Positions 1 through 23,709 of a DNA stretch of 64,000 bases are shown one piece after another. The notes beneath the pieces are model-generated. The model searched no databases. It was not told where the DNA came from and was given only the letters and a program-made list of their open reading frames with translations. Made by a program: the position numbers and the translations under genes. The DNA is taken from positions 350,679 to 414,678 of the forward strand of contig JAZRMF010000001.1 in the NCBI GenBank assembly GCA_045647355.1. Reading direction: 5' to 3'. The DNA is from Candidatus Enterousia sp. Lineage in GTDB: Bacteria > Pseudomonadota > Alphaproteobacteria > Rs-D84. The first letter of the stretch is position 1, and each line of letters opens with the position of its first letter.

Positions 1-409
1 AGTGATTGTCCCAACAAAGAATTGCGCGAAAAAAGGTCAAATTGCATGTATGTATGATTCAGACTGTGAATGGGACGGTGGCACATGTCGCGCCGTGGGA
101 GGAACGCCAGATGCCGCATTGGCCAACGAATGTGGTGGAAAAAATGTTACCGCATCAACATGTTCAACGGATAAGTGTGTATGGGATGAAACCAATGGTT
201 GTATTCCAAAGGCTACACAGATTGCAATTGGTGCTGGTCTGAAGGGTAGTTTGTTGGCGACTGGAATATTGGGCGGTGGTGGAACGTCGTCGTCGAGTGG
301 TGGTTCGTTATTGGGAACAGATCAAAGGGCTGCTGGAACAAATATCAATTTAAGGGCTGTTACTTCTGGACTAGGAAATTTTGGCTCAGGTATGGGGTTT
401 GGTAAATAA
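1..409 (+). CDS. 3' end (partial) of Cys-rich secreted protein with Gly/Ser-rich tail; related to the 6318..8693 and 10658..13273 proteins
   Basis: ORF open to the window edge. Many Cys residues and a glycine-zipper segment IAIGAGLKGSLLATGILGGGG, similar to the GAGIGA segments in the other family members. Confidence 0.5.
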   Translation, partial: VIVPTKNCAKKGQIACMYDSDCEWDGGTCRAVGGTPDAALANECGGKNVTASTCSTDKCVWDETNGCIPKATQIAIGAGLKGSLLATGILGGGGTSSSSGGSLLGTDQRAAGTNINLRAVTSGLGNFGSGMGFGK

Positions 410-1170
410 TGGTTAAATGTATGGATTTTTTTAGTGTTAAAAATTTAATCCGCGTTGTTGCGGTGGTGGCGATTTGTATGCTGTCATTTGGCGCGCATGC
501 GGCATATTATGATGACGATGATTATGATGAATGTCCGTATTTTACGCCGGCATACGCGCTGTGTACCACACATGCGTATAATGCGGACATGGCGACAAAC
601 CCGTCTGATTCCAGTCAGATTGCCCATATGAACGAAATTATCGCGTTAAAGTCAACCGTTATTGCACAACAAATGAAACAGCAATACGATGTTTTAAACG
701 CAATGGTTAAACGGTTTAAGACGCAATTGGAAAAATCTGTTTTAAAAAGCAAGATAGAGGTTATGACCGGCGGTTCATCTTCTTCATCGTCTTCATCATC
801 GGGTGGGGCATCTAACAATGGTGGTTTGGCGGCGGCCGAAGATTGCGATACCGTTGGACAAAGAAATGTCTATGACTGTCTTACCCGTAATTTAAGTAAA
901 ATCAATCAGGCGGTTGAAAAAGATTTGTCCAATGCCAGAAAGCAATTGGTCATAGATTACAACATTGCAAAAGATTACAAAGTCTGTGGCGAGGGCGCGG
1001 CTGTTGTGTCAACCAAATGTAATAAATGTGAAGACAATTTCAGTGAAGATACGCGTGCAAACAAAAATGATGTTAAAAATTGCATTTCGCAATTACGTCG
1101 TCAGATTGACCAGGCGCGTACGGAATATGAACGTGAAAACGCCCGCAGTCGTTATGACGACCGCCGTTAA
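409..1170 (+). CDS. hypothetical secreted protein (signal peptide, poly-Ser stretch, coiled-coil)
   Basis: N-terminal hydrophobic signal peptide ...VAICMLSFGAHAAYY. The ATG overlaps the upstream stop (TAATG). No recognisable domain. Confidence 0.5.
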   Translation: MVKCMDFFSVKNLIRVVAVVAICMLSFGAHAAYYDDDDYDECPYFTPAYALCTTHAYNADMATNPSDSSQIAHMNEIIALKSTVIAQQMKQQYDVLNAMVKRFKTQLEKSVLKSKIEVMTGGSSSSSSSSSGGASNNGGLAAAEDCDTVGQRNVYDCLTRNLSKINQAVEKDLSNARKQLVIDYNIAKDYKVCGEGAAVVSTKCNKCEDNFSEDTRANKNDVKNCISQLRRQIDQARTEYERENARSRYDDRR

Positions 1171-2548: not shown

Positions 2549-3130
2549 ATGAGACACCAAAAAGCAGGTCGCACTTTTAATCGCGATACAAATGCTCGCA
2601 AGGCTTTGTTTATAGGCTTGGCGAAGAATTTAATTGAAAAAGAACAAATCAAAACAACGTTGCCAAAGGCCAAAGATCTGCGCAGTGTCGTAGAAAAATT
2701 GGTTACACGTGCCAAGGTTGATACCGTTGCAAATCGTCGCCTGGTTGCATCTGAATTGGGCAACGCCAGCGGCGCAGCCGTTAAGAAATTGTTCACTGTA
2801 TTGGGACCACGTTATGCAAAACGTCCGGGTGGTTATACTCGCGTTCTGAAAGCGGGTTTCCGTTACGGTGATGCGGCACCAATGGCGATAATCGAATTTA
2901 TTGACCGTGACGTTAACGCCAAGAAACCGGCGGTTAAACCAGAAGTTGCGGCGGCCAAAGCCGAAGAAGCGGTTGCAACCGAAGCAACAGAAGAAAAGAA
3001 AGCGGCCAAGGCGCCAAAGGCCGAAAAGCCGGCGACCACCAAGAAAGCGCCTGCAAAAGAACCAGCGGCACCAAAGGCCACTGCGGCAAAAAAGACCGTT
3101 GCGGTTAAACGTCGTGCCACAGGCAAATAA
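2549..3130 (+). CDS. rplQ: 50S ribosomal protein L17 with ~70-aa Ala/Lys/Pro-rich C-terminal extension
   Basis: The N-terminal ~120 aa match L17 ([44 protein letters not shown]…). The C-terminal [17 protein letters not shown]…[13 protein letters not shown] tail resembles histone H1. Confidence 0.9.
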
Positions 3131-3204: not shown

Positions 3205-6132
3205 TTACAGTTTTATTTCACGCGTTTCAATTACAGGTTCTGCATATGACGTGCAATATATACCATGGAAGTTTTCTTTGGTTGTGGTGCTCTGGCTGTA
3301 CCCTATGCCAGATACAGATGTATTACCACTTACAGATCCTCCTGTCAAACCAACATCACCGTCGCCATACGCACAAGCAGTTGCAATACCAGCGCCCGAG
3401 CATTTTTCGGTATCTGTGGTAATAATTGTATCTATGTCGGAACACAGTAAAGATGTTGTTGTGACAGTACAAATGTTTGTTGTGGGACTGTATGTTGATG
3501 TCATAGAAATTGATGCCACCATATTCCCATCACCATCGGTTTGAATAAATTCGCCTTTGCCTTTGGACATTGTTTGCAATTTCTTGGTAAGGTCTGCGGA
3601 TTGTAAAACATACTGGGTGCCATTATTCCTTATCCCTGTATCGCCACTGGTGTCATTAAATATAGATTCCAATCCCTTGGTCCCCCATTCCGTACAAATA
3701 TTCGTTTTCTTTTGGGTAAGCGTGCTGGTGACAGTTACTGATTTTGTGCACACTTTCTCACCGCTGTAACTCATCGCGGCACAAAGCGCAGATTTAATAT
3801 CATCGCTTTGGTCTTCCAGGGCGTTACCGACCAATTCATCATATTTTGCCCGATAATTCAAATATGCCTTCTTTAACCCAGAACTAAACAGCATTTTTGA
3901 ATAGGAATCTAACAGATTCGGGAACCGTGCCATTTTGTCTTGTGATTTGTCCTGTTTGCCGGTACGGCTGTAACGCCAATCACCACTGCGGCCGTTAATA
4001 CACATATCAATTGTTGGGTCGGTTTGCAATGTATCCATCTTTTGCGATATACTGTTTTCAACTGTTTGTATGGCTGCTTTGATACGGGTCAATGTGGACT
4101 CGTCTGTTTCATTCCATGCATCTTTGTTGTTAAATTTAAACTGACTCTTGTCTAAACTATATGCGACTTTGCCATCTTTCGTTGTTTCTTTACTTTTCAG
4201 CAATCCGAAATTCATCAAACCATCGATAATTATTTGATCGCCTTTTTTGTATGTAACCAATGAATCTGTACCCATAACGGTATCTTCATCAAACGCATCA
4301 CAATCAGACAAACTGCCGCAGACTTCTAATACCTTGGATTGTACGGCCTTTTGACATGATGACAACAGGTTGTTATCTATCCCCAAGAATATACCTTGGG
4401 CGATACGTGCCAATTCATCATATATTTCTTCGTCGGTTTTAACCTTGGCACTTTTATTTGTACGTGCGGAACCATCAGAACCATCGTCATCATATTGGCA
4501 ACCGACTAACTTTTCTGCCGGACATAAACGAACGATGGTATCTGTATCCAAACCAATACATTGTGTGTAGTCCGCACCGCAACGATCTTCGGATTGCAAA
4601 CATTCTTTGAACTCTTTGGTACATGCATCAACACGCATAGATGCCAAACGTGCACGTACATAGTCCATAATCTTGGGTTCTGCGGCTTCGCACGGATCAA
4701 TTTCTACTTTACAGAACGAACGCAAGGTTTCCGGACGTGTCAAACACATGTCATATGAACCGTCGGGATTATTCGGGTCCATATTTTCTTTACATGCCTT
4801 TTGGAAACAGTCGGAAATCGTTGAAATACAAGAAGTACGCAAATTAGATTCCGCCGCCAATTCCGCAGATTTTACCTGCGGGGCAACTTCGCGCAGAAAT
4901 GTATCCCAAACCTGGTTTTTAACATTGACACATTGTTGCGTGACGGTCATACACAATGGCTTTTTCGATTCCAATGCATCGTATGTCCATGCGGCAATTT
5001 CAATGCTGGTTGATGCACCCTTGATTTTTTTCATTTTCATTTTGCCGCCTTGCAATGTTTCACGTGTTGTTTGTTGTGTTACGCAACCTGTAAAGTCATC
5101 GCCGCATCCGCCGGTTGTTTGCATGCACTTTTTAAATTCAATTGTACATTGTCCCAAATCGTATTTATTCGCGTTACGATATTGTTCTAATGCCGCTTCG
5201 CGCATTGCGCTTTGCGCAGCCGCCAATTTTTGTGCGCTTTGTGTGCGTTGTTGGCGCAGGCTGTTTTCATATGCGCTGCAATCGGAACGGATGCGTTGTT
5301 GATACATCAATTCCATCATTTTATTTTGGTTGCTGCATTCGGGGATTTGCGCGGTGCAAAGTTTTACAGATGCACGATACAGTGCGTCGCCTTTTTTATT
5401 TGCAACTGACACACCATCCGCGGAAAGCGAGAATATATCTTCGACTTCTTCTTCAAAACCGGAATCGCTGTCATTGTTCCATGTAGACAGGTCCAATGCT
5501 CTGCGTTTTGATTTTTCTTTGTCGGCGTCTTTTTCAATACTGGACGTGATTGATTTCGTCTTGGCCATAACGGCGTCGGCATCGTCACCCATTTCAATAC
5601 GTTCAACACCAACCGTTGCCATTTGATATGATTGATTATCCAAGTCTTGGATTTCGGCAAGAATCGAATCGTATTCGGCATTTTTATCACTGCAGATACA
5701 ACGGCCGCCGGTCGCATTATCCAACATGCAAAATGAATCCATGCATCCGCTGAATTTATTCCAACATTCTTCATCGACAACGGTGTTTTGTGTCGCGGTT
5801 GCGACCTTGGTTCCTGAATTAATAACGTTTTGTTTTGTTCCAGCACGTGCTTTGACGGTTGATGTTGTCGGTGTTGTTGCACTGCGTCCACGTGAAACGG
5901 TTGTTTTAGTATTATTGGTTGTGGCGGCGGTTGGTGTTGTTGCGCTGCGGCCGCGTACAGCGGTTGTTTTTGCGGCACGTGCACCAACTATCCCGGCGGA
6001 ATTTCCAGATGTTGAACCCACAGATTGTGATGTGGAACCTGTTGAACCCCGCGCGTTTCCGCGTGATGGCGTTGCTCCATATGCATCAAATCCGCCAATT
6101 AGAAATGCCAATATCAATAATATATTTTTCAA
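3205..6132 (-). CDS. giant Cys-rich secreted protein, family A (motif C.D.FC.LD…GGRC.CS; C-terminal RSFCKV.IDPCE…RVDACT…)
   Basis: TTG start with a GGGGG RBS and signal peptide MKNILLILAFLIGGFDAYGA. Ser/Thr/Arg-rich repeat RGRSATTPT x2. Shares N-terminal and C-terminal Cys motifs with the 54028, 57590 and 59768 proteins. Confidence 0.8.
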   Translation of the reverse strand: MKNILLILAFLIGGFDAYGATPSRGNARGSTGSTSQSVGSTSGNSAGIVGARAAKTTAVRGRSATTPTAATTNNTKTTVSRGRSATTPTTSTVKARAGTKQNVINSGTKVATATQNTVVDEECWNKFSGCMDSFCMLDNATGGRCICSDKNAEYDSILAEIQDLDNQSYQMATVGVERIEMGDDADAVMAKTKSITSSIEKDADKEKSKRRALDLSTWNNDSDSGFEEEVEDIFSLSADGVSVANKKGDALYRASVKLCTAQIPECSNQNKMMELMYQQRIRSDCSAYENSLRQQRTQSAQKLAAAQSAMREAALEQYRNANKYDLGQCTIEFKKCMQTTGGCGDDFTGCVTQQTTRETLQGGKMKMKKIKGASTSIEIAAWTYDALESKKPLCMTVTQQCVNVKNQVWDTFLREVAPQVKSAELAAESNLRTSCISTISDCFQKACKENMDPNNPDGSYDMCLTRPETLRSFCKVEIDPCEAAEPKIMDYVRARLASMRVDACTKEFKECLQSEDRCGADYTQCIGLDTDTIVRLCPAEKLVGCQYDDDGSDGSARTNKSAKVKTDEEIYDELARIAQGIFLGIDNNLLSSCQKAVQSKVLEVCGSLSDCDAFDEDTVMGTDSLVTYKKGDQIIIDGLMNFGLLKSKETTKDGKVAYSLDKSQFKFNNKDAWNETDESTLTRIKAAIQTVENSISQKMDTLQTDPTIDMCINGRSGDWRYSRTGKQDKSQDKMARFPNLLDSYSKMLFSSGLKKAYLNYRAKYDELVGNALEDQSDDIKSALCAAMSYSGEKVCTKSVTVTSTLTQKKTNICTEWGTKGLESIFNDTSGDTGIRNNGTQYVLQSADLTKKLQTMSKGKGEFIQTDGDGNMVASISMTSTYSPTTNICTVTTTSLLCSDIDTIITTDTEKCSGAGIATACAYGDGDVGLTGGSVSGNTSVSGIGYSQSTTTKENFHGIYCTSYAEPVIETREIKL

Positions 6133-6317
6133 TGGAATTCCCCCTATTATCTTTCATATTTTATCATAAAAATGCATGTTCACCAAGAATAAAAATAAAA
6201 AAATAGTAAATATTGGTTGATAAAATTATGCGCATAAGATACTGATTTTCATCTGCATAACGAAATAAAAAACGCCGTCCGAAATGGACGGCGTTGGGAC
6301 ACCATGCGAAACTGTTA

Positions 6318-8693
6318 TTAACGATCATCAGGATGATTTGGATCGACCTGGTCTACCTCTGTGCAGGTTGAGGTATCCAAATACAATTTTGCCTTCTGAT
6401 AGTTTACTTTGCATTTATGGCTTTGTTGGTTATATTGGCACGCGGTTGAAACTTGCATTGATCTCGGTGTGTATATAACCTTGGCAACATTGCATTCTGC
6501 CGGATTCACCAGTGCCGCGCAAGCATCTCGCCATTCATCACATGTCTTGACATTTGGTGTTTGTGACGGGGTTGGCGGTACGTCAGGATTGGTCATGCAT
6601 TCGCCATTTGCCTGGGCCACAGGTATGTTTGCGATACACGCACTGCCCGATACCATGCAGGCATTTTTAACCAATGTTGTACTTGCCAAATTGCCCGGAC
6701 GATAATTGAACTGTGCCGCACGACATTCGTCCAAATCGGTGTACAACGCGCATGTTAAACCCCAATTCTCACAATTTGTTACAACCGCGGTTGGTGCAAC
6801 GTTTTCCGGCAAATTCAATGCCCATTTGACATAGAAGTCACGCAGACGGTCAATGGTGTATGATTTACCAAATCCAACCTTGGACAGGCCATCGGCCACG
6901 CGGCAGTTAATATTGTTGCGTTCAACAAATGCCGTAATTGCTGTCGCTGTACCACCGGCCGCTGCACCAATACCGGCGCCGACCAATGTGGTTTTCAGAC
7001 GATTCGATTCTTGGCCGTTAAGTATTTCCAGTGATGCAAACACCTTTGTTAATGTTGCCAATTCTGCCTGGAAGTCTGCACGGCTGATACATTCGTTGTT
7101 GTGACCTTTGCAATATACACCTGTGCCATCACGACGCGCCAAATTCAACGCACGGAATGTGCAGTATTCAAGAGCGTCTTGGATTTGTGAGGCATATTGT
7201 TGTGCCAATTCACGGAATGGTGCCTGGACCGCGGCCACAATCTGGTCAACCTGGGCATCGGACAGACACGCGCCGCCAGATGAACATTGTGAACGGATAC
7301 TTCTGCTGATAATATCAATGTCGAATTCAGCATTGATTTCAACAATAACCTGATTCTTGCTTTCACAAGTTTTAACGGCATCTTTACCCATTTGCCACAA
7401 ATCATACAGGTCGATGATTTCGTTACACTGTGCCTGGGTCAGGGTTTTGTCGTTCGTTGAAATCTGGGTTTCAAGGAACTGATTAAGTATACCCGTTTTT
7501 TGGTTGTCTTGAATCTGCTTTAACAATTCGTCACGCATAGATTTTATCGAACAATCAAATTTGCGGTCACCATGTCCGGCCAATGCACCGATACCGGCAC
7601 CGACCAGTGTACCACCACCAATACCAACCACAGCGGCGGTTTTGGTCTTGTTCATAAGTGAAAATCCAAACAAATCTTTGTTGCATGTGAATGTTGAGCC
7701 CGCGGCTTGCCATACTTCGGCCGGATCATCGTTTCCAACGATACCAAACAACCAACTGTTTCTAATTGGTGTTTCTTTGTTATAGGCCGCAACACGCAAC
7801 AAGCACTCTGCTTTTTCCGCGTCCCAACGTGCATAGTATCCACGTTTGCCGTCAATGCCGAAATGATTCACTTGCGCGCCAAGTGGATTTGCTTTGTACA
7901 TCGAATCGTTGTGTGCGCTGTTGTATGCGCCGACTGTGTGCAAGTATTCAGAACTTGTACGGTCAGTGGTGGAAACCGCATCAAACGATGCACCGTATGT
8001 ATTGCGGTCAAGCAACAAACACGTGTTTTCGGCCTGGGTCGGTGTCAAACCAGTTTGTGCAAGAACAAATCGATAGTATTCTGGCTGAACCTTGCGGGCG
8101 TTAAAGTCAAGCCATACATCAGATGCAGATGCATAGACATAATGGCAGTCTTTGCGGACGGTTGATATACATTTTTCAACCTGGGTTAGGCAAAGGCTCA
8201 TACCGTTTATGATAGATTCACGTAAATCTTGGTTAAACAATGAATTTATCCCGTTCGGTAACGCACCACCGTTCACGCATGAAAGAATTTCGTCCATACA
8301 GTTGTCGACGGTATATGCAGAATTTCTGACACCCCCATCTGGACATTCCACTGGGGTATCGGGGTCTGGTTCTGGCCCTGGCGGTGGAGGTGGCGGTGGT
8401 GTTGGCCCCGGCCCCGGCTCAGGTTCCGGTTCTGGTTCTGGGGTCTGGTTGTGATTAGTATTCGTGCTGGTTGACTTATTTCCCAATGCACTTATTGGTA
8501 ATACAGGAATAGATGGCATGCGGCCACTGCTGGCGGCGCTACGACCATGAGTTTGTTGCGTTGTTGCCGTCGCACGACCATTGCTGACGGCGGCATTACC
8601 ACGCGGACTGTCGGCACCAAAACACGCACCTGTCATCGCGATAACAGACAAGCAAATTACACTTTTTCCCAATGTTTTCAGCAGTTTTTGCAT
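6318..8693 (-). CDS. giant Cys-rich secreted protein, family B, with (PE)n/(PG)n/poly-Pro linker and two glycine-zipper segments
   Basis: Strong RBS AAGGAGGG and signal peptide MQKLLKTLGKSVICLSVIAMTGA. Linker PEPEPEPEPGPGPTPPPPPPPGPEPDPD. GAGIGALAG and GAGIGAAAG segments. Confidence 0.8.
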   Translation of the reverse strand: MQKLLKTLGKSVICLSVIAMTGACFGADSPRGNAAVSNGRATATTQQTHGRSAASSGRMPSIPVLPISALGNKSTSTNTNHNQTPEPEPEPEPGPGPTPPPPPPPGPEPDPDTPVECPDGGVRNSAYTVDNCMDEILSCVNGGALPNGINSLFNQDLRESIINGMSLCLTQVEKCISTVRKDCHYVYASASDVWLDFNARKVQPEYYRFVLAQTGLTPTQAENTCLLLDRNTYGASFDAVSTTDRTSSEYLHTVGAYNSAHNDSMYKANPLGAQVNHFGIDGKRGYYARWDAEKAECLLRVAAYNKETPIRNSWLFGIVGNDDPAEVWQAAGSTFTCNKDLFGFSLMNKTKTAAVVGIGGGTLVGAGIGALAGHGDRKFDCSIKSMRDELLKQIQDNQKTGILNQFLETQISTNDKTLTQAQCNEIIDLYDLWQMGKDAVKTCESKNQVIVEINAEFDIDIISRSIRSQCSSGGACLSDAQVDQIVAAVQAPFRELAQQYASQIQDALEYCTFRALNLARRDGTGVYCKGHNNECISRADFQAELATLTKVFASLEILNGQESNRLKTTLVGAGIGAAAGGTATAITAFVERNNINCRVADGLSKVGFGKSYTIDRLRDFYVKWALNLPENVAPTAVVTNCENWGLTCALYTDLDECRAAQFNYRPGNLASTTLVKNACMVSGSACIANIPVAQANGECMTNPDVPPTPSQTPNVKTCDEWRDACAALVNPAECNVAKVIYTPRSMQVSTACQYNQQSHKCKVNYQKAKLYLDTSTCTEVDQVDPNHPDDR

Positions 8694-8799
8694 GAAAAAC
8701 CCTCCTTTTCTATCCCTAGTAGTATATCATAAAAAAGGGCTATAAAAAAGTCTTTTTATAAAAAAATCTGAAAAAATGGTAATTATTTTTGGCTTATGG

Positions 8800-8827
8800 T
8801 TGACAGATAATAAAAAATGTCTATAAT
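8800..8827 (+). promoter_or_regulatory. consensus sigma70 promoter TTGACA-16-TATAAT upstream of 8853 gene
   Basis: Perfect -35 TTGACA (8800-8805) and -10 TATAAT (8822-8827) with a 16-nt spacer. Confidence 0.5.
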
Positions 8828-8852
8828 ATTTAGTGATTAATGGTTAGAAAAC

Positions 8853-9902
8853 GTGGCATGCATAAAGGATTTTTTCAAAAAATGGCGGCTCGCGATTGCG
8901 TGGACGGTTGGCTATGCAGTGGTTATGTGGGCCATTTTGCGTGGATTGTTTAGCTTTAATATGTTGCGCTTAGACCATTGGGAAAAGTTATCACATGTTG
9001 AATTACATGGATTCCCAGGTTTTGTATTTGCGATTTTGCTTTTGGCGGCGATACCGCTTTATATTGCCACAGTCATGTTAACGGTTCGCAAGAACGAAGT
9101 TCCAGTAAAGATTCCTGTGCCGAAATGCTTTGTTAAACCACCCAAGGCTGAACCGGCACCACCCAAGCCGATTGTTACACCTGGTGAAGTCCTGGAAGAT
9201 TTACCAGCCGGTGTTCCCGCCGAAATGCGTGAAATATTTGTGCGCGCGCACAAGAACAAAAGCGTACGCCAGATGTCGGTATTTAATCGTCCGTCTAAAT
9301 TTGATGACAGCCCAGTTGCAACCACTGTCAAGGCGGAACCTGCGCCCGCCCCAATGATGACACCGTCGCCGGCCCCGGTGGCACTAGCACCAACGGTGCA
9401 AACACCGCATCCCGTAGAACCTGTTTCGGATGAGGAATCTGATTTCCCAATACCAACCGATTTTGATATACCTGTCAAAAAAGATTACGATGTGCCCGTA
9501 TTTTCGGATATCAAATTTGATGATGATGACGAAGAAGATGAAGAGAAATCAGAAAAAGCAGAATACGCAAACGTGAAAGACATCATATCTGGGGCAGGGC
9601 ACAAGCCGGAAATTGTTGGTAATTTGATTGTGGTGAATGATTGTGCGATTGCAGTTCATGCGGATGATGATTTCTGGGTCGCAGATGAATTGGATTGGTT
9701 CGCATCGGGTCGTCAAAAACCATCGCCAATTGCAGAATTAAATAAAATTGTCACAGAGAAGGGATTGAAACCAATATTATACCTGGGGCAGACCAATATT
9801 ATGAATTTTGATAAAGTATCTGAACAATGGCGCGCAGAAGGTGTACAAATTGTTACCAGTGTAGACGAACTGTTAAAATTGATTCAGACCGACCCAAAGT
9901 AA
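8853..9902 (+). CDS. hypothetical membrane protein (2 N-terminal TM helices, Pro-rich linker, acidic region)
   Basis: GTG start (an in-frame downstream ATG is possible). TM segments AIAWTVGYAVVMWAIL and FVFAILLLAAIPLYIATVML. Pro/Ala-rich region and a DDDDEEDEEK run. Confidence 0.55.
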   Translation: MACIKDFFKKWRLAIAWTVGYAVVMWAILRGLFSFNMLRLDHWEKLSHVELHGFPGFVFAILLLAAIPLYIATVMLTVRKNEVPVKIPVPKCFVKPPKAEPAPPKPIVTPGEVLEDLPAGVPAEMREIFVRAHKNKSVRQMSVFNRPSKFDDSPVATTVKAEPAPAPMMTPSPAPVALAPTVQTPHPVEPVSDEESDFPIPTDFDIPVKKDYDVPVFSDIKFDDDDEEDEEKSEKAEYANVKDIISGAGHKPEIVGNLIVVNDCAIAVHADDDFWVADELDWFASGRQKPSPIAELNKIVTEKGLKPILYLGQTNIMNFDKVSEQWRAEGVQIVTSVDELLKLIQTDPK

Positions 9903-9969
9903 TTTACTGATGCATTGACTTATTTGGTGTCGCGGATATCACAGGATTTATCCTACTTTGCCAATGGGG

Positions 9970-10425
9970 CTATTTCCATGTTGTGGATGTATATTCACAA
10001 TAATATTCAACTTTGCCTTCGGCATTTTTATTGAATTTTGGCCATGCCTTAGTAATTTTAATTTTGCCACTGCCAAACTGTAACGGTTTGTTCAGTTTGG
10101 TTAAATTTGTACATGCTTCTCGCAGTGCTGGTTTACATGCGGCTTGACACGATGCATCAGGTAGTATTTGCCGGCTGCGGTAAATTTTTTCTGGGGTTAA
10201 ATCTAAACCGTCGCAGACAGTTTTGCATTGTGGATTTCGTGCCAGTGCATTTTCGTCTGATTCATCGTCTTGGTCGTCACTGTTTGGTCTGTTGCGTGGG
10301 GTGCTGCTGGTGGACTTAACCGTTTTGATGTCGCATTTATATTGTGTATCATCACCAACGTGTTTTATTGTTAATGTTACATCGGTTGAGTTGGTTTTAA
10401 AACTACCGCACTTTTGTTCTATCAT
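9970..10425 (-). CDS. Cys-rich segment lacking its own signal peptide; in-frame continuation of the upstream 10658..13273 gene after a -1 shift at an A10 tract
   Basis: The same frame is open with no stop from 10657 down to 9970 (…NNDVNPTPANNTPGDATERRTPTNPNPQ…CDTICKNL…MIEQKCGS…). No RBS or signal peptide of its own. Confidence 0.45.
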   Translation of the reverse strand: MIEQKCGSFKTNSTDVTLTIKHVGDDTQYKCDIKTVKSTSSTPRNRPNSDDQDDESDENALARNPQCKTVCDGLDLTPEKIYRSRQILPDASCQAACKPALREACTNLTKLNKPLQFGSGKIKITKAWPKFNKNAEGKVEYYCEYTSTTWK

Positions 10426-10657
10426 TGATCTGCACTTGCCTTGGCATGATTTCTGTGCAGCAGGTAATACTTGTAGTGGATTAGTTTGGGATATTGCGTT
10501 GGCAAGGTTCTTGCATATGGTATCGCATTGATTTGCACTGCCGCCGGAATTTTGTGGTGCGGGGGTGCCGGTGGCATTCTGTGGATTAGGATTGGTGGGG
10601 GTGCGACGTTCGGTTGCATCACCTGGGGTATTATTCGCTGGTGTCGGATTTACATCG

Positions 10658-13273
10658 TTATTTTTTTTTTGAACTGTTTACAACAGGGCCATCTTCGGTT
10701 TTAATCCGGTATGGGGTGATCTTGCTAACACTATATCGTTTCCCGTCGGGGTCTGTATAAGAAATCTTGCAGTTTGCGTTTGCAGAAACTGTAATAGCAG
10801 GGCTTGAAGAACTTTCAAGTGTCTTTGAATCGCATTCGACTTTTGTCATTGTTGCGTTCTTGACCTTGCTTAATATATCCGACCATTTAAGTGTAATGTT
10901 CGAACATGTCAGGTTTATTGGGGTGTTAGCTTTCTGCATATTGTCCAATTCTGCGACAGTCTTCTTATATGGACCACAATAATCTGCTTTGACGGTGCAA
11001 TTAATTGATGCGGGAACATCATAAATGAGAACTTTGTCAGAATATGTATATGGGCTTTTCTTCCCTGCATTATTATCACAGGTTATATTCAAATTTTTCA
11101 GGTTTATGTTCGATGGGCCTTTGACACCCAAATTAAGCTTGATAAGTGCATCACCGCCGGTACATTCGTTGTTTTCCCATTTCCCGAATTTTGCAAGACA
11201 GTCGTCGACCTTTCTACATACCATTGTTACAGATTGCATCGCAGAAAATTCTTTTGCGGTTTTTTTCATAGGACTACACGTTGGGGCGCTTGTCGCTATT
11301 GTACATTCCGCATTTCCTGGAATCTTTTTTAATGATAAAACGCCTTCTTTGGTTGTTTTGGCCTCTTTGTTTTTATTGTTATACTTACATCTTAAATATC
11401 CTTGTACCGGGGTGTTGGCACTGGTCAGTGCCTTTAAATTAATATTTACCTGTGCGGTTTCATCCTGGGGATTTGATTCGCGTGCGCGACGCTCGTCACC
11501 ACTTGGTTCTTCAGTTGGTTTGTCTTGACACTTGTCGTCTTTCCATTCGCATTTATCAAGTTTGTCGCAACCGTCTTTATTGTTATTATACATTTCGCAT
11601 TTTAGCGCACCTAAAACGGTGTTATCTAGTTGCGCAGTTTGGAATGAATATCTTCCATCACCTGTTTTATAATCGCAATAGAAATTTCCATTGTTGAATA
11701 TAAGTTGTGGATTGGTAATAGTTTTCCCTTCTCCAAGATCTTTGCCTTCTAACATTGTACATAAAGTGCCTATTTCTTCGGTACACTTTGCGCGACAACT
11801 TGGTTCACTTAATGGTTCTTGATGTAAATTATCACCTGATTCAAGTGCAGAATTGAGATTTTCAACAATTGTTTTACATATTGGTTCGCAATCAACAGGT
11901 GGTTCCTCTGCCTCTTTGCATGTATCAGTACTTACGTCGTATGTCTTTGTTGAATCAATACATTCTTGTGTGCACGTGCCATTGCTATACACGCGGCCGG
12001 CATTTGTACATTTTTGTTCGGCGTTCTCTTGACCGCCTTCATCGGTTTGATTTTGGTTTTGTGTACATTGACCATCTTCCCATGTGCCACCGGCATTTGT
12101 ACATGCTTTTTCTGGATCTATGTCCGTACATTCACCCTTTTTCCATGTGCCACCAGAATTTTCACATTCTTGTTTTGCGGCTTTTTCGGCCTTTTGTGTT
12201 TCTAGTGCGCGTCCAATTGCACCCGAAGATAGCAAGCCTGCGGCCGTACCAACACCAGCGCCCAACATTGCAGATGATGCCGCCGTTTGTGAACGTGTCA
12301 AACGATATGCGTTTTCTTTGAACGTTGTAACATCTATGCCAAACCAATTTGCATTGCATTGGAAACTGTCCCCGGCATAGAGTTTTTTCGATGCGGTCGG
12401 GGTACTGGTATTATCGCCGGCAAAGAAATTCACAGTATATACGCAATCCAACGTGCGTTCGTCAAACATTGCACCCAAACGATTGCACTGTGTGCGCATC
12501 AAATCACGCAATTCATACAAACGTTTTTCGTCTTTTTCTGCCTGGGCCTGGGCGATGGTTCGCAAATCGCCAAATACGGTCATAATGCGCGATGCCATGC
12601 CACTGTCTTGTTCTTTACATTCCTTGGCAATGGTTCCACATTTCGATATTGCGCGGTCGCCATCAGATTTAGATAAGCATTTTTCTAATGTCGTTCCGCA
12701 TTCTGCAAATACGCACGCGTTGTATCTGTTGCCGCATGAAATCACAGAATTATAATATGTCATGCGTTCATTAAAGTCACGATCAGCCAATATTTCTGGG
12801 GCAAGTAATGAATATTCGTGACCACTGCATTCTGTTTTGCGACGGCAAGAATCCATTTTTTCACCCCAAATGGTGGTGCTGTCTTTTGAACATTTTGTAA
12901 AATCAGCCCCGCATTTTTCGGCCATACATTTACGCAAGTTCGCATCGCATGCGTTTGCGCCTGTGACACCCGAAGATGATTTTCCGCCGTCGGATGGCGC
13001 TTTTCCTTTGTTGTCTAATAAGGCACGTTGACGGCGCACGCGGTCCGCTAAATCGGAACTGGTTGTGTCAGCGGTTTTTGCACCCAGGTCGGAAAATACT
13101 TCGTTAAATTGAGATGTTTTATTATCAACAACAACCGTTTTCGTAGAAGATGTTGTCGATTTAGTTTTTGATTTTGTCGTTTTTGTGGCGGCATATGAAT
13201 CAGCGGTGTACAGTGCACATGCGGCGATTGCCACAACAAAAATCTTTGATAAAATGTTACGTGTCTTTCTCAT
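10658..13273 (-). CDS. giant Cys-rich secreted protein, family B (glycine-zipper, Cys-rich EGF-like C-terminal region, ends SSKKK)
   Basis: Preferred start is MRKTRNILSKIFVVAIAACALYTADSYA at 13273, which overlaps the upstream stop as TAATG. The ORF track gives 13291. Segment SAMLGAGVGTAAGLL. Confidence 0.8.
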   Translation of the reverse strand: MRKTRNILSKIFVVAIAACALYTADSYAATKTTKSKTKSTTSSTKTVVVDNKTSQFNEVFSDLGAKTADTTSSDLADRVRRQRALLDNKGKAPSDGGKSSSGVTGANACDANLRKCMAEKCGADFTKCSKDSTTIWGEKMDSCRRKTECSGHEYSLLAPEILADRDFNERMTYYNSVISCGNRYNACVFAECGTTLEKCLSKSDGDRAISKCGTIAKECKEQDSGMASRIMTVFGDLRTIAQAQAEKDEKRLYELRDLMRTQCNRLGAMFDERTLDCVYTVNFFAGDNTSTPTASKKLYAGDSFQCNANWFGIDVTTFKENAYRLTRSQTAASSAMLGAGVGTAAGLLSSGAIGRALETQKAEKAAKQECENSGGTWKKGECTDIDPEKACTNAGGTWEDGQCTQNQNQTDEGGQENAEQKCTNAGRVYSNGTCTQECIDSTKTYDVSTDTCKEAEEPPVDCEPICKTIVENLNSALESGDNLHQEPLSEPSCRAKCTEEIGTLCTMLEGKDLGEGKTITNPQLIFNNGNFYCDYKTGDGRYSFQTAQLDNTVLGALKCEMYNNNKDGCDKLDKCEWKDDKCQDKPTEEPSGDERRARESNPQDETAQVNINLKALTSANTPVQGYLRCKYNNKNKEAKTTKEGVLSLKKIPGNAECTIATSAPTCSPMKKTAKEFSAMQSVTMVCRKVDDCLAKFGKWENNECTGGDALIKLNLGVKGPSNINLKNLNITCDNNAGKKSPYTYSDKVLIYDVPASINCTVKADYCGPYKKTVAELDNMQKANTPINLTCSNITLKWSDILSKVKNATMTKVECDSKTLESSSSPAITVSANANCKISYTDPDGKRYSVSKITPYRIKTEDGPVVNSSKKK
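10661..10670 (-). repeat. homopolymeric A10 tract (T10 on + strand) at the 3' end of the 877-aa gene, directly before its stop
   Basis: Ten consecutive T on the + strand at 10661-10670. A 1-nt contraction puts the upstream CDS in frame with ORF 9970..10657. Confidence 0.9.
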
Positions 13274-14136
13274 TACTTTAATACCGTACATGCATTTTCA
13301 TAGAATTTGCATAATTGTTTTGCCATTGATTTTTCTTTTGCGTCTTTGCATTTGCCGCGCATGTTATTTGTACAAACATTTTCTATGCAACCGTCCGCGG
13401 CGGTTCCCTTGGTGCAAGCTGTTTTGATGCTTTCAAGTTTAGTTTTGCGTGTTTTTTGATAATTTTCCGCAATCGTTTTAACCAAGGTTTCGCGGTTGTT
13501 TAGCGCGTTTGTTCGGGCGGATGCCGCGGTCTTTTTGAAATCGGCAATGTATTCGTCGCATCCACTGGCCTCGGCACCACATTCGGCGACAATGCGGTCG
13601 AAATCCGCATCTTTTTCGCATGAATCAAACGCGGTTCCGCACTTTTTATCCATACATTCTGTAAAGGTAGTGTTGCAACTGTTTTTCGTTTTTTTGGTAT
13701 TAAGTTTTGTTGCCGCATTTTGAATTTGCATCGTGACACCCGCGGCCTTGCATGATTGTTCAATTAATTTGTCGTATGCGGCGGATGCATCGTCTGGTGT
13801 GCAATCCGGTAATTTTTTGATACATTCCGTGGTTGCCCAAATATAGCGCTTGCCCGGATCAGATGGTGCAGATTTTAAATCTTTTTCGCTAATTGCATAT
13901 TTTGTTGATTGACCTGCGGTAATATTGTTCAATCCCTTTTGCGATGGGGGTTCGCCGGCACCAGATGTTCCGCAATATTGACAACGCGCCGACGGATTCA
14001 TGCTGGCGTTAATTGCACACGCAGAATCAAGACACCGTGTAAGATTTGTTTTTGAACATTTGCTTACTGCGGCATAACCGCCAAACGCAGTGAATCCGCC
14101 AAATACACCAACAAAGAGCAGGATAAAATGCTTCAT
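13273..14136 (-). CDS. Cys-rich secreted protein (287 aa), first gene of an operon with 10658..13273
   Basis: Signal peptide MKHFILLFVGVFGGFTAFGG. 24 Cys. Translationally coupled to the downstream gene. Confidence 0.75.
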   Translation of the reverse strand: MKHFILLFVGVFGGFTAFGGYAAVSKCSKTNLTRCLDSACAINASMNPSARCQYCGTSGAGEPPSQKGLNNITAGQSTKYAISEKDLKSAPSDPGKRYIWATTECIKKLPDCTPDDASAAYDKLIEQSCKAAGVTMQIQNAATKLNTKKTKNSCNTTFTECMDKKCGTAFDSCEKDADFDRIVAECGAEASGCDEYIADFKKTAASARTNALNNRETLVKTIAENYQKTRKTKLESIKTACTKGTAADGCIENVCTNNMRGKCKDAKEKSMAKQLCKFYENACTVLK

Positions 14137-14262
14137 CTCCCCAATCCAGTGTATTGATTATATCAAAAAAACAACCCCGTTGCAAAATATTTTTATTTAC
14201 CTATTGACAACGTAAAAGTTTTGTCTATAATATATATGAAATCAAACCAAAGGAGTTTGGAA

Positions 14263-15383: not shown

Positions 15384-18300
15384 ATGAAGTTTGTTAGACT
15401 TTTGGTTTTTGCTTTATTCTTTGCGCCGTTTGGTGCATTTGCGGCACCAAATGATTTTACGGTTGCAGCGCAGTTGTTGGCCGCGGCAAAAAATGCCGAT
15501 ATTCAACAGGTTCAGATTTTGGTTAATAATGGCGCAAATATAAACTATGTCGATAGTACAGGGTTATCATTGGTTTGTACGGCATTGATGAATAACGATT
15601 TGCGTGCGGCGCAAATTCTGCAAATGTATGGTGCAGATGCATCACAATGCGACCGACAAATTAAGAATTACAAGACACAAAATTCGCCCGGGCGAACGGG
15701 TGGGCTATTCGGTGGACTATCCACCGCCCAGGGATTAACATTGGCGGCGGCGGGTGCCGCCGTTGTTGTAGGTGGACTTTATTTATTAACGGATGTATTT
15801 GATCATGATAATCATAACCATACATCGTCATCCAGTGATGGTAATCACGGTGGGGGCTCTGGCGGCGGCGGTGGTGGTTCTTCGAATAGTGGTACCGTAT
15901 GGTCTGCGGGTGCATTGCCATATGGGCCGGCGATGTTAAATGCAACCCAAGAAACCGCAAATTACACAAATAATTTGGCATTGTATTACACGCAATATGA
16001 TGCCGATAATGAAGAAACGGTTTATTACAAAGATTTTAATTTGATGAACAGTTACGCAGGGAATAATTCCCAGAATTATTTGTTGTTAATGCGTGGCTAT
16101 TCGCCGTTGGCGCGTGGATATTTGGGAATGCGTACATTACGTGATACATCAACAAATACACCACTTGCCTTGTATAATGCCCAGGGGGATTCATTATACA
16201 ATCTTGGAACAAATGAACATGTTATGGGCGGGCGTCCGGTTAATGTTGCGTTAATTACGGCAAATGGTGTTAATGCCGTAGATGGGTCTTCGTTGCAGGA
16301 TAAATTTGTGTTGTGGACACAACATTCTGGACCCACCAGTTTAGTGGCGGCAAGTAATGACAAGATGTCCAGCAAGTATTACAACAATATGATAACATTC
16401 GGTGCAAATGAACTTTCGATTATTGATGATACATCGGTGGAAGATCCTTTGACGTTGGCAGCGTTTGATTTGTCGGGTGCGGGTACCGCAATACATAATG
16501 GTTCTGCAACCGGTGACGATAATCTGTTGGGTAAAATAGTCGGCGGAAATTTTGAAACAGGGTATAACGGCGATTTTGCGGGCTTTATGCCAAATGGTCA
16601 AATGACAATTTATCGCACAGGTGGCGGCAAGAAACTGATTGCTGCGGATAATTCAATTTCAGGCTCGTATAATTTTGCTGGCACAGAGATTGCGGTTAAC
16701 GATACGATGACATTTGATAGTGTTGGTGTAACCGCAAAGGTTGCGGCAATTGGTACGGTTGGTTTGGGCGATGCAACGAAAAGTATAGCATGGTCTTATG
16801 TCGTTGATGGGCAAACGAAATATTTTTATGGGTATTTGTTGGGTAATTTATACTATATAGATTTTGATGGCGATGGAATGCCAGATGCCGCCTATGCCAC
16901 CAGTTCTGGAGATTTAGTTTTGGTTAAACGTGTAACCAGTGAAGGTGTCGATTACTATAATTACACGGCATTGGTAAATGCGGCACTGCGTTCAACCGGG
17001 GATTTAGAAAAGGGGCGTTCGCGGGTTGATATAATTGCAAATGCGGATGTAATCGAACCACTGCACAGCCGTTCGGCATATACGGTGCGCGATATGTTGG
17101 CAAGTGATTTTGATGATTTGTATTTCGCGGCTTTTGTGGAAAGTAGTTACGGTGCAGAATCTACAGATAATGGTTTTATTCCGCGGGTCCAGGCCCAGGC
17201 GTTCTTTAATGGGTTGGGATCGTTGTATAAACCGTTAACTATTTTTTCTACGGGCGCATCCATTCAAAATACCGGGGCATTGTATGCAGATTCACTGCAA
17301 GAAGCCACGTTTGAAAATGCCGCGCCATTGGTGTTTGATAATCTGAATCATTTATTTATGTCGGTTGTTGCGGTCGGGGCCAGTACGTATGGAACAACAA
17401 CAATTGCCGCGAATTCTGATACAAACACGAACAAATATAGTTTGGCACAGTGGGCAAGTAATGTCGATGGTACAACAAACTATTATAAATCACGTATTTG
17501 TGGAATTGCGGGAACTGGAAATGCGGGTGCGATGGATCCATGGTGTTTCGCATCGGTTGGAATTACCGATGAAATGGCGGTCGCATCGGCGGCGGGTGCG
17601 GCGGGTGTGCTGCGTTCGGCATTTTATTACATGACACCCCAAGAAATATTTACACTGCTTGCGTTGACGGCGGATGGTCCATATCTTAATCGTTTGTCGG
17701 CGGGAACCCAGTTAAATCAGACATCTTTGGCGGCGCATTTACGTTCTTTGTATAATATGCCGTCCGAATATCAATACGAGATAACTGATGATGCCAGTTA
17801 TTTAGAGGTGTTTAAACGTGTGTTTGGTTATGGTGTGATAAATCTTGAACGCGCGACAACACCGGGAACAAATCTGTATTATTACACAAATGGTAAAATT
17901 GTTTCCAGTGCGGGTAATGCGTATTGGCGCGCGGCGACAAATACAAATATGCGTATGTCGCCGGCGTTGAATCTGGGACGTGGTGCAATTAACATTGCGG
18001 CGTATGATATACTGGAAAGTGTTGATGGTTCAATGCGGTTACCGCGTATTTGGGAAAGTAATGTTTCTTTTGGTAATGAATCGCGTAGCGCGCTGTATAT
18101 GGGCGATGTGTTGGGTGATTTGCATACACGTGACGTTGCCGATAATACAATGCATATTGGAAATATGTCGTTTGGTTTTGCGCGTTCGGAACGTTTGTAT
18201 AATGACAGTATGGGTGGGTTGGACAATATGCATTTGTCATACGCGCATGACAATTGGAAATTGTCTGCTGATTATCAGCGTTATTTGACGGATGGTGAAT

Positions 18301-19097
18301 CGCGTTTCTATGGAATGGCGAATCCGATTTTATCTTTGGCGTCGCGTGCAACAACCGGTGGTATAGATTACAGTTTTGGTAAATGGTCATTTGGGGCGCG
18401 CGGATTTACCGGTGCAATAACGGACGAAGGTTTATTGGAAAACGACCCAACGATTTCGTCATTGTATGAACCGATGAGTTTGGGAACGATTGCGGGTGCG
18501 CAATCTGAAATAGGGTGGAACAATGAAAAGTTCGGTTTCAAAACATCGGTTGGTTCAATGCACGAAGATAACACCATGCTGGGTGCGTATGCAACGGGGT
18601 TGTTGGAAATTGGTGGTGCCAGTACGAACTATGTCGATGTTGATACGTTTTGGAAAGTGTCAGATATGTTGAAACTGCGCGCGCGTGCGACATTTGCACA
18701 CACCACACCGAACATGGACAGTGGCGCGATTATAGACGTGTCTGGATTGAATTCTAATGCGTTTGCGTTTGGTGCGGATGTTGGAAATATTAATTTGGGT
18801 GTGTCATTACCATTGGCGGTGTTTGATGGTCACATGAGTTATGATTACGCGAACTATGAAATAGTGGATACAGATGATGGTCGTTATGATTTGGCGATAA
18901 CTGATTTCGGTACAAGACGTGTTAGCATGTCGCCGGCGCATCGCGAAGTTCGTCTGAATGCGACATATCGTCATAACTTTGGGCCGTTTACCGATGGTGC
19001 GATTGGGTTTATATACCGTATAAATCCGAACAATACCGATGAATTCGGAAATGAATCTATATTCATGATGAAAATGTCACATATGATTGGCATTTAA
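15384..19097 (+). CDS. large secreted ankyrin-repeat protein (1237 aa) with Gly-rich segment and beta-rich C-terminal region
   Basis: Signal peptide MKFVRLLVFALFFAPFGAFA. Ankyrin repeats (…LLAAAKNADIQQVQILVNNGANINYVDSTGLSLVCTALMNNDLRAAQILQMYGADA…). A GGGSGGGGGGSS run. Alternating-residue beta pattern near the C-terminus. Confidence 0.75.
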   Translation: MKFVRLLVFALFFAPFGAFAAPNDFTVAAQLLAAAKNADIQQVQILVNNGANINYVDSTGLSLVCTALMNNDLRAAQILQMYGADASQCDRQIKNYKTQNSPGRTGGLFGGLSTAQGLTLAAAGAAVVVGGLYLLTDVFDHDNHNHTSSSSDGNHGGGSGGGGGGSSNSGTVWSAGALPYGPAMLNATQETANYTNNLALYYTQYDADNEETVYYKDFNLMNSYAGNNSQNYLLLMRGYSPLARGYLGMRTLRDTSTNTPLALYNAQGDSLYNLGTNEHVMGGRPVNVALITANGVNAVDGSSLQDKFVLWTQHSGPTSLVAASNDKMSSKYYNNMITFGANELSIIDDTSVEDPLTLAAFDLSGAGTAIHNGSATGDDNLLGKIVGGNFETGYNGDFAGFMPNGQMTIYRTGGGKKLIAADNSISGSYNFAGTEIAVNDTMTFDSVGVTAKVAAIGTVGLGDATKSIAWSYVVDGQTKYFYGYLLGNLYYIDFDGDGMPDAAYATSSGDLVLVKRVTSEGVDYYNYTALVNAALRSTGDLEKGRSRVDIIANADVIEPLHSRSAYTVRDMLASDFDDLYFAAFVESSYGAESTDNGFIPRVQAQAFFNGLGSLYKPLTIFSTGASIQNTGALYADSLQEATFENAAPLVFDNLNHLFMSVVAVGASTYGTTTIAANSDTNTNKYSLAQWASNVDGTTNYYKSRICGIAGTGNAGAMDPWCFASVGITDEMAVASAAGAAGVLRSAFYYMTPQEIFTLLALTADGPYLNRLSAGTQLNQTSLAAHLRSLYNMPSEYQYEITDDASYLEVFKRVFGYGVINLERATTPGTNLYYYTNGKIVSSAGNAYWRAATNTNMRMSPALNLGRGAINIAAYDILESVDGSMRLPRIWESNVSFGNESRSALYMGDVLGDLHTRDVADNTMHIGNMSFGFARSERLYNDSMGGLDNMHLSYAHDNWKLSADYQRYLTDGESRFYGMANPILSLASRATTGGIDYSFGKWSFGARGFTGAITDEGLLENDPTISSLYEPMSLGTIAGAQSEIGWNNEKFGFKTSVGSMHEDNTMLGAYATGLLEIGGASTNYVDVDTFWKVSDMLKLRARATFAHTTPNMDSGAIIDVSGLNSNAFAFGADVGNINLGVSLPLAVFDGHMSYDYANYEIVDTDDGRYDLAITDFGTRRVSMSPAHREVRLNATYRHNFGPFTDGAIGFIYRINPNNTDEFGNESIFMMKMSHMIGI

Positions 19098-20851: not shown

Positions 20852-20945
20852 GATATCTCCTTCATGTTAAGCCAATGGATTATAAACCGATTTTTATAAA
20901 AGGCAACTGTGATATTCTGTATATGTATTTTTTATTTTTTTGCTC

Positions 20946-20975
20946 TTGACCTGATTCGGTGATTTTTGATAAAAT
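20946..20975 (+). promoter_or_regulatory. sigma70-like promoter (TTGACC-17-TG-ATAAAAT, extended -10) flanked by a 7-bp inverted repeat ctgattc/gaatcag
   Basis: -35 at 20946-20951. TG and -10 at 20967-20975. The IR at 20951-57 and 20982-88 brackets the -10 and is a possible operator. Confidence 0.4.
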
Positions 20976-20984
20976 ACCTGTGAA

Positions 20985-21205: not shown

Positions 21206-21239
21206 ATAAGGCAAACAAACGAAAATGGGGGGATATTCC

Positions 21240-21788: not shown

Positions 21789-21813
21789 TAGTTGGTGAAA
21801 GGGGGACAACAAT

Positions 21814-22827: not shown

Positions 22828-22887
22828 TGTATCGGTATAGCCAATAAAATGTAGCACATTTTATTGGCGATCGTACGGGTGGGGTTT

Positions 22888-23703: not shown

Positions 23704-23709
23704 ATCGCC

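Follow-up and report, generated by a model that had tools for sequence, protein, structure and literature searches.

Cysteine-rich exported proteins beside rpoA-rplQ in Candidatus Enterousia: a conserved set of core genes, one with a candidate homopolymer switch

Introduction

One of the questions raised by the genomes of Rs-D84, a lineage of Alphaproteobacteria, regards the large cysteine-rich proteins that are encoded next to rpoA and rplQ: what are they, and what may they do for the cell? In this paper we looked at one such locus in Candidatus Enterousia sp. (GenBank assembly GCA_045647355.1, contig JAZRMF010000001.1, positions 350,679 to 414,678 of the forward strand). The whole stretch of 64,000 nucleotides is called the window, and its own numbering is used throughout. 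Rs-D84 genomes are smaller than 1 Mb and most biosynthesis and respiration are missing from them, and a dependence on a partner was proposed; the lifestyle is that of a fermentative anaerobe of the gut, and Rs-D84/Enterousia are widespread in the guts of ruminants, horse, chicken and human (PMC12306168).

An original prediction, made from the DNA letters alone, described cluster 1 (3205-14136) as five consecutive minus-strand genes whose products belong to two families of paralogs, A and B. It suggested lineage-specific, disulfide-rich surface or secreted proteins, analogous to the cysteine-rich outer membrane proteins (OMPs) of Chlamydia. Here, we analyzed the proteins by homology searches, with structure prediction for Family A and p791, and compared the locus between species.

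A conserved neighbourhood of different genes

The five minus-strand open reading frames (ORFs) lie exactly at the predicted coordinates, and rpoA and rplQ were confirmed by Pfam. The genes of the locus are:

1299-2327: rpoA (Pfam)
2549-3130: rplQ (Pfam)
3205-6132, minus strand: Family A protein, 975 aa (ORF)
6318-8693, minus strand: p791, 791 aa (ORF)
8853-9902, plus strand: p349, 349 aa, divergently transcribed from p791 (ORF)
9970-10425, minus strand: 151-aa ORF, part of the p877 gene
10658-13291, minus strand: p877, 877-aa ORF
13273-14136, minus strand: p287, a small exported protein with 20 Cys, 287 aa (ORF)

The minus-strand ORFs encode 38 (975 aa), 32 (791 aa), 8 (151 aa), 46 (877 aa) and 20 (287 aa) cysteines. 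They are not five consecutive genes: p349 intervenes and the 151-aa ORF is the tail of p877, so cluster 1 comprises four minus-strand Cys-rich genes with one plus-strand membrane-protein gene, p349, between them. Signal peptides had been predicted for all five products; N-termini of this type were found in the 975-, 791-, 877- and 287-aa proteins, and the 151-aa ORF has none.

A scan of GTDB with one genome per species gave 492 loci encoding Family A relatives, of which 79 were kept, and synteny was compared in 78 species loci. Family A, the divergent p349/p791 pair, the same-strand p287-p877 pair and p1237, which encodes a 1237-aa protein, sit near rpoA-rplQ as a linked group in the majority of these 78 loci, with some inversions. 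Because of this conserved linkage, cluster 1 is, as judged from sequence comparison, an Rs-D84-specific neighbourhood of different single-copy core genes; the "density of paralogs" of the original prediction does not describe it.

The lineage specificity itself was borne out. The 79 kept loci belong to Candidatus Enterousia or to gut metagenome-assembled genomes (MAGs) labelled Alphaproteobacteria, proteobacteria or "Rickettsiales", with the exception of one bin labelled Bacteroides fragilis (L063), and the named homologues are all hypothetical proteins of "Alphaproteobacteria bacterium" or "Rickettsiales" MAGs from rumen and gut. For p287, only 62 representative clusters exist among 1.84 billion proteins, and the named ones are all from the same lineage; their locus-tag prefixes are like those of MAG sets from termite gut.

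The p1237 gene (15384-19097) is divergently transcribed from p287 and linked with it in many species. Its exported product has N-terminal ankyrin repeats (PF13637, E 5.5e-5) and a C-terminal part that is beta-rich and barrel-like by eye, with no Pfam match.

Protein families new in sequence and fold

Searched against Pfam, NCBIfam, PHROGs and PADLOC, none of these proteins had a match that passed the threshold. The sole matches were of low complexity: Trypan_PARP on the Pro-rich linker of p791, and an unnamed PHROG (E 0.0018). PDB sequence searches with the profiles of the three families, of p287 and of p349 returned only low-complexity or coiled-coil noise, no match was found among PDB folds, and the five proteins have no autotransporter or YadA-anchor match in Pfam. 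In the literature we found no paper that describes these protein families. The earlier statement that no domain can be named holds, as neither profile searches nor comparison with PDB folds gave the conserved modules a confident match to a characterised family. The Cys-rich families are new in both sequence and fold. The kinds to which they appear to belong, envelope proteins rich in cysteine and a contingency gene controlled by a homopolymer, are already known.

Family A was confirmed as four paralogs, one in cluster 1 and three in cluster 2:

54028-56400, plus strand: Family A paralog, 790 aa (BLASTP and module hidden Markov model, HMM)
57590-59764, plus strand: Family A paralog, 724 aa, with a Gly-zipper-like segment near the C-terminus (residues 684-705)
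59768-62221, plus strand: Family A paralog, 817 aa (BLASTP)

The closest paralog of the 975-aa protein is that at 59768-62221 (35% identity over 709 aa, E 7e-132, BLASTP), followed by those at 57590-59764 (E 6e-48) and 54028-56400 (E 1e-20). More than 1,100 homologues were found in a collection of 5.8 billion proteins, none with a Pfam domain, and a scan of viral contigs contained no relatives. The 975-aa protein starts with a signal peptide, followed by a disordered stretch of ~100 aa rich in Arg, Ser and Thr, a Cys-stapled helical region (~120-550) and a variable C-terminal part with a beta-rich end. In the family alignment residues 100-550 are conserved and the rest is more variable. The AlphaFold model, of moderate confidence (pLDDT 67.6), is mainly helical with a beta-rich C-terminus. 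In one other species locus (L079) the 817-aa-type paralog is broken into two same-frame ORFs (20673-21170 and 21243-22448, together 20673-22448), and a G8 tract lies at 21212-21219 inside the 72-nt gap between them.

The p791 protein forms a family of its own, marked by 22 invariant Cys and an invariant RMP[ST]xPxLP motif, besides a signal peptide and a linker rich in Pro; two conserved blocks (100-400 and 550-700) flank a variable helical stretch (400-550), and the AlphaFold model, again of moderate confidence (pLDDT 60.7), is mainly helical. Its main features are:

8379-8450, minus strand: imperfect hexanucleotide repeats (TGGCGG, GGCCCC and GGTTCT on the plus strand) encoding the Pro-rich linker PEPEPEPEPGPGPTPPPPPPP
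7569-7637, minus strand: first Gly-zipper-like hydrophobic segment, residues 353-375, AAVVGIGGGTLVGAGIGALAGHG (mean Kyte-Doolittle hydropathy 1.73 over 19 aa)
6924-6998, minus strand: second, less hydrophobic Gly-zipper-like segment, residues 566-590, LKTTLVGAGIGAAAGGTATAITAFV (sub-threshold Pfam match)

The repeats behind the linker, already noted in the original prediction, were thus located at 8379-8450. Both Gly-zipper-like segments have a pLDDT below 50; the first lies at the boundary between conserved and variable sequence and the second where conserved sequence resumes. Gly-zipper_Omp (PF13488) stays below threshold on p791 residues 564-581 (E 0.073; 13.4 bits, where 25 are required) and p877 has no match to it in Pfam. 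An NCBIfam profile of OmpA-family lipoproteins also stays below threshold (13.4 bits against the required 307). A lipobox is not conserved in p791 and p877, as the signal peptide carries a Cys in only 27-34% of the aligned homologues and the N-termini end in AxA-type sites.

These segments had been taken as the mark of a Family B, formed by p791, p877 and the fragment at the start of the window. Such a family does not exist by homology: p791 and p877 have no BLASTP match to each other, and the fragment (2-409) is the C-terminal end of another protein, of the 667-aa type. The p791 and p877 profiles align over only ~27 columns (hhalign probability 52%), at an A-G-x-x-F-x-C-N-x3-F-G motif just before the Gly-rich segment. 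A Gly-zipper-like segment is also found in the Family A paralog at 57590-59764; therefore it is a shared small module and not a family marker.

Where a locus has both genes, p349, which the original prediction had missed, is almost always the opposite-strand neighbour of p791. It is not Cys-rich and has two hydrophobic segments (11-33 and 58-76), a Pro-rich acidic middle and a conserved C-terminal domain, with no match in Pfam or PDB.

The division into two families also fails for p877, which shares a four-Cys module, C-x6-C-x4-C-G-x-D-F-x2-C, with p287 instead, and weakly with Family A. The link between p287 and p877 was seen by BLASTP (E 3e-4), by the module HMM (E 2.4e-4) and by hhalign (probability 76%). 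Two copies of the module are present in p877 and in each Family A paralog. The relation of p877 with Family A is weak: hhalign gives a probability of 40%, an HMM built from p877 alone picks up Family A where the module is expected (domain E-values only 0.07 and 0.17), and an HMM built from Family A alone does not detect p877. The p287 stop codon overlaps the probable p877 start (TAATG); therefore the two genes are predicted to be co-transcribed. The conserved part of p877 contains:

12287-12994, minus strand: N-terminal Cys-helical domain, about residues 100-335, with 15 invariant Cys and two copies of the module
12212-12280, minus strand: Gly-zipper-like segment, residues 338-360 (hydropathy 1.41), after the F-x-C312-N-x3-F-G motif that is also found in p791

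Residues 50-400 of p877 are conserved. About 40 residues beyond the Gly-zipper-like segment conservation falls sharply, and the rest of the protein is hypervariable (5-20% identity, many gaps, variable length).

Cysteine conservation and parity

In Family A, 34 of the 38 cysteines are at least 94% conserved, even between paralogs of just 22-35% identity, and p791 and the p877 N-terminal domain have their own invariant sets, of 22 and 15 as given above. Cysteines are commonly spaced as C-x6-C, to a large extent on predicted helices, and variable cysteines are gained or lost in pairs (for example, 795/813 and 891/970). Signal-peptide-like N-termini are found across the alignments of the Cys-rich families, and parity was counted on the mature proteins, with the signal peptide removed. 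Even counts were found in 104 of 118 Family A proteins (p = 4e-18), 109 of 117 p791 proteins (p = 9e-24) and 25 of 31 p287 proteins (p = 9e-4). The p877 family is the opposite, with odd counts in 117 of 120 (p = 4e-31) over totals that span 15-65.

This parity, far from random, fits predicted intramolecular disulfides in all the families and one conserved unpaired Cys in p877; by elimination this would be C312, which belongs to the motif that precedes the Gly-zipper. The original prediction of disulfide-rich proteins is supported by it and by the near invariance of the Cys positions. With an export signal and conserved, even numbers of cysteines, the proteins fall into the general class of disulfide-rich extracytoplasmic proteins, the bonds themselves being predicted.

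One Family A paralog (54028-56400) has an odd mature count (31), and so does the 233-aa exported protein encoded next to it (9). Both lie within 54028-57171, and their genes are neighbours in all three other loci that have both (L026, L052 and L079). The two odd counts may hint at an intermolecular disulfide pair.

A split gene and a candidate switch in p877

The question why cluster 1 contains a short Cys-rich ORF without a signal peptide is answered by p877. The 151-aa frame is open for ~80 codons upstream without a start codon, no separate orthologue of it was found in the 78 loci, and it was rejected as an independent gene. The p877 gene is represented by:

9970-13291, minus strand: single p877 gene, interrupted by a frameshift; if intact it would encode ~1106 aa with 58 Cys (tblastn of P0122; removal of one base)
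10661-10670, minus strand: A10 on the coding strand (T10 on the plus strand), frameshift junction and candidate slipped-strand switch; the longest homopolymer of the 64-kb window

The protein P0122 is an intact homologue of 1110 aa and 81% identity. By tblastn its residues 1-874 align on 13291-10676 and residues 878-1110 on 10671-9973 in another frame, and deletion of one A of the A10 tract gives an uninterrupted ORF of 1106 aa. In the window the tract cuts the product at 877 aa and leaves the last ~230 residues out of frame. A relative of 97% identity also carries A10, in two independent assemblies (ENA ERZ27298419 and Logan SRR12711017), and is truncated at 872 aa; its out-of-frame downstream segment is open for ~222 codons and diverges from that of the window after ~45 residues. 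In the 81%-identical relative the tract is A15 and the gene is in frame.

Tracts of this type recur between species. A10 or G8-G10 on the coding strand was found in 11 of 49 p877 orthologues, 3' of the conserved N-terminal domain. Some of these tracts are in frame, with 200-300 codons after them; others are followed by a stop within 0-5 codons and by an alternative frame that is open for 75-288 codons. The 78 species loci (1.50 Mb) contain 53 long homopolymers. The p877 orthologues account for 6% of this sequence and for 12 of these homopolymers (binomial P = 5.8e-5). In the p877 family 17 of 120 proteins end in KKK or GGG; the other two families have none among 120 each. Because long homopolymers are enriched in its orthologues, the p877 tract looks like a site of slipped-strand phase variation of the distal C-terminal cassette, with tract lengths taken from consensus assemblies.

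Internal repeats were not found in the restored p877 by BLASTP with default settings, and a likeness of the tail to residues 454-541 appears only without composition correction and is not relied on. In another Enterousia, the p877 orthologue P0135 (L085, 12254-13160) ends in two tandem domain copies with a period of 525 nt. These are homologous to the variable-region domain (22462-22806) of the target of a diversity-generating retroelement (DGR) in the window, with 32-34% identity (E 7e-11). The two copies were rejected as a template and variable pair, as they differ by ordinary and not adenine-specific substitutions, and the 23-kb L085 locus has no gene with a Pfam annotation for reverse transcriptase.

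The DGR of the window is complete (21814-24723). It has a reverse transcriptase (23710-24723; PF00078, E 4e-12), a variable repeat (22691-22820) at the 3' end of the gene for its target, a 337-aa exported protein (21814-22827), and a template repeat (22985-23114). The repeats are 88% identical and each mismatch is an A in the template; the ORF at 21225-21788 is a paralog of the N-terminal part of the target. The p877 gene of the window was rejected as a second target, since a conserved 36-nt stretch of the template/variable repeat, with as many as 3 mismatches allowed, was found at 22785-22820 and 23079-23114 and nowhere else, both outside cluster 1.

Other features of the window

Further features around the Cys-rich genes are:

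2-409, plus strand: C-terminal end of the 667-aa-type exported Cys-containing protein, 5' of rpoA on the same strand
409-1170, plus strand: 253-aa exported Cys-containing protein, 5' of rpoA on the same strand
6271-6295, minus strand: terminator-like hairpin between the p791 and Family A genes, a 10-bp stem followed by a T run (consensus match alone)

Neither of the proteins encoded 5' of rpoA is related to p791 or p877. Genes for exported Cys-containing proteins are embedded here within the string of ribosomal-protein genes and rpoA (window 2-1170; L001 16494-20129). In L001 the interval between rpsK and rpoA holds four same-strand genes without Pfam annotation (109, 106, 667 and 245 aa), and window positions 2-1170 correspond to the last two of them.

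Two perfect matches to the sigma-70 consensus (TTGACA-16-TATAAT) were found at 8800-8827 and 14204-14231. Both face away from the Cys-rich genes: the former lies upstream of the plus-strand p349, and the latter upstream of a plus-strand gene for a 236-aa protein with a lipobox-like sequence.

At 37790-41929 a 1379-aa protein is encoded that has a YadA-like membrane anchor (E 1.7e-9) and a sub-threshold match to Chlamydia PMP repeats. By its domain match it is a predicted trimeric autotransporter adhesin, which indicates that the organism has an outer membrane.

Discussion

Based on these data, we lean, with somewhat more confidence than doubt, towards a disulfide-stabilised envelope scaffold of Rs-D84 with a variable and phase-switchable outer part, which may serve in contact with, or evasion of, a partner, a host or phage. 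The Cys-rich proteins would be exported by the Sec pathway, as their N-termini suggest, and would fold into mainly helical domains that are held by many intramolecular disulfides, as the invariant cysteines, the C-x6-C spacing on predicted helices and the even counts suggest. The p877 protein would retain one unpaired Cys, probably C312, which could make an intermolecular link. The Gly-zipper-like segments may anchor p791, p877 and one Family A paralog to a membrane. Because these segments of p791 and p877 sit at or near the boundary between conserved and hypervariable sequence, the conserved parts are probably buried in the envelope and the variable parts exposed. Slippage in a poly-A tract, or in a poly-G tract in other species, would decide whether the distal C-terminal cassette of p877 is made. 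That the variable parts may be exposed on the surface is suggested by their hypervariability, by the switch and by the DGR-type domain in the C-terminus of one orthologue. The surface or host-interaction role of the original prediction gains indirect support from the hypervariable C-terminal parts and the frame switching of p877; the location that it requires is inferred.

Several known systems resemble parts of this picture. Chlamydial OmcB and OmcA, with the major outer membrane protein (MOMP), are also large Sec-exported proteins with a few percent of Cys in an obligately dependent, genome-reduced bacterium, and stabilisation of the envelope by disulfides, including intermolecular ones, would be expected in both (compare the odd Cys count of p877, 117 of 120). 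Yet, none of the five proteins matches such a Pfam family (hmmscan, Pfam-A, E up to 0.1), the Enterousia proteins are mainly helical whereas OmcB is beta-rich, and they are much larger and belong to several unrelated families. In addition, one of them has a homopolymer switch, and no developmental cycle is known. The comparison with chlamydial cysteine-rich OMPs stays an analogy. With contingency genes of Campylobacter, Helicobacter, Haemophilus and Neisseria, p877 shares an intragenic long poly-A or poly-G tract whose length differs between relatives and sets the frame, and such tracts recur in its orthologues in both on and off states. Unlike in those genes, the switch would remove only the distal C-terminal cassette, and the conserved N-terminal domain would still be expressed.

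Glycine-zipper outer-membrane lipoproteins of Proteobacteria (SlyB, YfgH and the Rickettsia 17-kDa antigen family; see bioRxiv 10.64898/2025.12.22.696046 and 10.64898/2026.06.08.730324) have similar short Gly/Ala-rich hydrophobic segments, located there in the outer membrane. In Enterousia, however, each segment is ~22 residues within a protein of 700-1100 aa, a conserved lipobox is missing and the Pfam matches are sub-threshold. In the variant-specific surface proteins (VSPs) of Giardia, too, a variable Cys-rich extracellular region stands on a conserved anchor and the expressed form varies, but these are eukaryotic proteins with CXXC motifs and other means of switching, and there is no homology. 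Targets of DGRs are approached by a single p877 orthologue, P0135, with its two copies of the variable-region domain (E 7e-11); p877 of the window lacks a copy of the template repeat, and the P0135 copies differ by ordinary substitutions.

The main rival to an envelope scaffold with a switchable outer part is a purely periplasmic, disulfide-cross-linked layer that stiffens the envelope, as in the chlamydial complex, with nothing exposed on the surface. It suits Family A and p791 equally well, as these are strongly conserved core genes without phase-variation tracts; the proteins have only Sec-type signals and no known domain for export to the outer membrane, and the conserved odd Cys of p877 suggests intermolecular cross-linking. 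What such a layer does not account for easily is p877, with its hypervariable C-terminal regions of variable length, a homopolymer frame switch and a DGR-type variable domain, which are hard to explain if buried; nor are the proteins related in sequence to the cysteine-rich proteins of Chlamydia. We regard this layer as improbable, though worth serious attention. Another option concerns the switch alone: the frameshift of p877 may be an assembly error at a homopolymer or the onset of gene decay in a shrinking genome. MAG consensus sequences are error-prone at long homopolymers, the lineage is genome-reduced (PMC12306168) and several p877 orthologues are short. Against this, A10 is present in three assemblies made independently of each other (that of the window, ENA ERZ27298419 and Logan SRR12711017), the downstream out-of-frame segment is open for 229 and ~222 codons in two lineages of differing sequence, tracts occur at comparable positions in many species both in and out of frame (enrichment P = 5.8e-5), and the coding density of the lineage gives no sign of pseudogene accumulation (PMC12306168). 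We find a mere error or decay rather unlikely.

We give much less weight to two further possibilities. The cysteines could bind metals (zinc or iron-sulfur) or act in redox reactions, which would make the proteins extracytoplasmic redox or metal-handling factors of an anaerobe. The anaerobic, fermentative habitat (PMC12306168), the tight Cys clusters and the lack of a Dsb-type gene among the scanned ORFs of the window are in line with this. However, even parity and the pairwise gain and loss of cysteines are predicted by disulfides and not required for metal sites, the spacing is C-x6-C on predicted helices and not the CxxC or CxxCH that is generally associated with iron-sulfur or haem, and no cofactor-binding family was matched; such a function is very improbable. 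It is more doubtful still that the proteins are secreted toxins or effectors that act on a host or competitor membrane with pore-forming Gly-zipper segments. Large exported proteins with such segments and variable C-termini in a partner-dependent organism (PMC12306168) could be read in this way, but no toxin domain was found, no secretion-system or immunity-like small genes are adjacent, and single-copy core genes in fixed synteny by housekeeping genes are unlike polymorphic toxin loci.

Several observations weigh against the scaffold with a switchable outer part and temper our preference for it. The localisation of the Cys-rich proteins was inferred only, and no domain for outer-membrane translocation or for a beta-barrel was recognised in them by Pfam or NCBIfam. 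The Gly-rich segments are merely borderline hydrophobic (1.4-1.7) and fail the Pfam thresholds for Gly-zippers, and the models of Family A and p791 are of the moderate confidence given above. Among the scanned ORFs of the window (at least ~150 aa) no disulfide-forming enzyme was found, and the organism is a fermentative gut anaerobe. Tract lengths come from consensus assemblies, in which variation within the population was not directly observed. Homopolymers are not enriched in Family A and p791 in the 78 loci; both are well conserved and may never be exposed on the surface.

As a speculation to which we assign a low probability, Rs-D84 may have its own, hitherto undescribed surface apparatus. 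In it Family A and p791, together with the p287 and p877 N-terminal domains, would form a helical, disulfide-cross-linked scaffold that crosses the outer membrane, or is anchored in it, by helical Gly-zippers in place of beta-barrels, and that carries exchangeable, phase-variable cassettes to grip and exploit a partner cell, such as a gut protist, a bacterium or the epithelium.

The Cys-rich genes of clusters 1 and 2 occupy ~17 kb, about a quarter of the window and ~2% of a genome of 0.9 Mb. They are conserved across the order, and therefore they are probably central to the Rs-D84 way of life. What is gained is a core set of envelope proteins without known relatives, a signature of Cys parity from which disulfide bonds and one free Cys in p877 are predicted, and a candidate homopolymer switch whose tract length could be read directly from metagenomic data that already exist. 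Should the variable cassettes prove to be surface-exposed ligand binders, they would be the natural lead to the partner of these uncultured bacteria.

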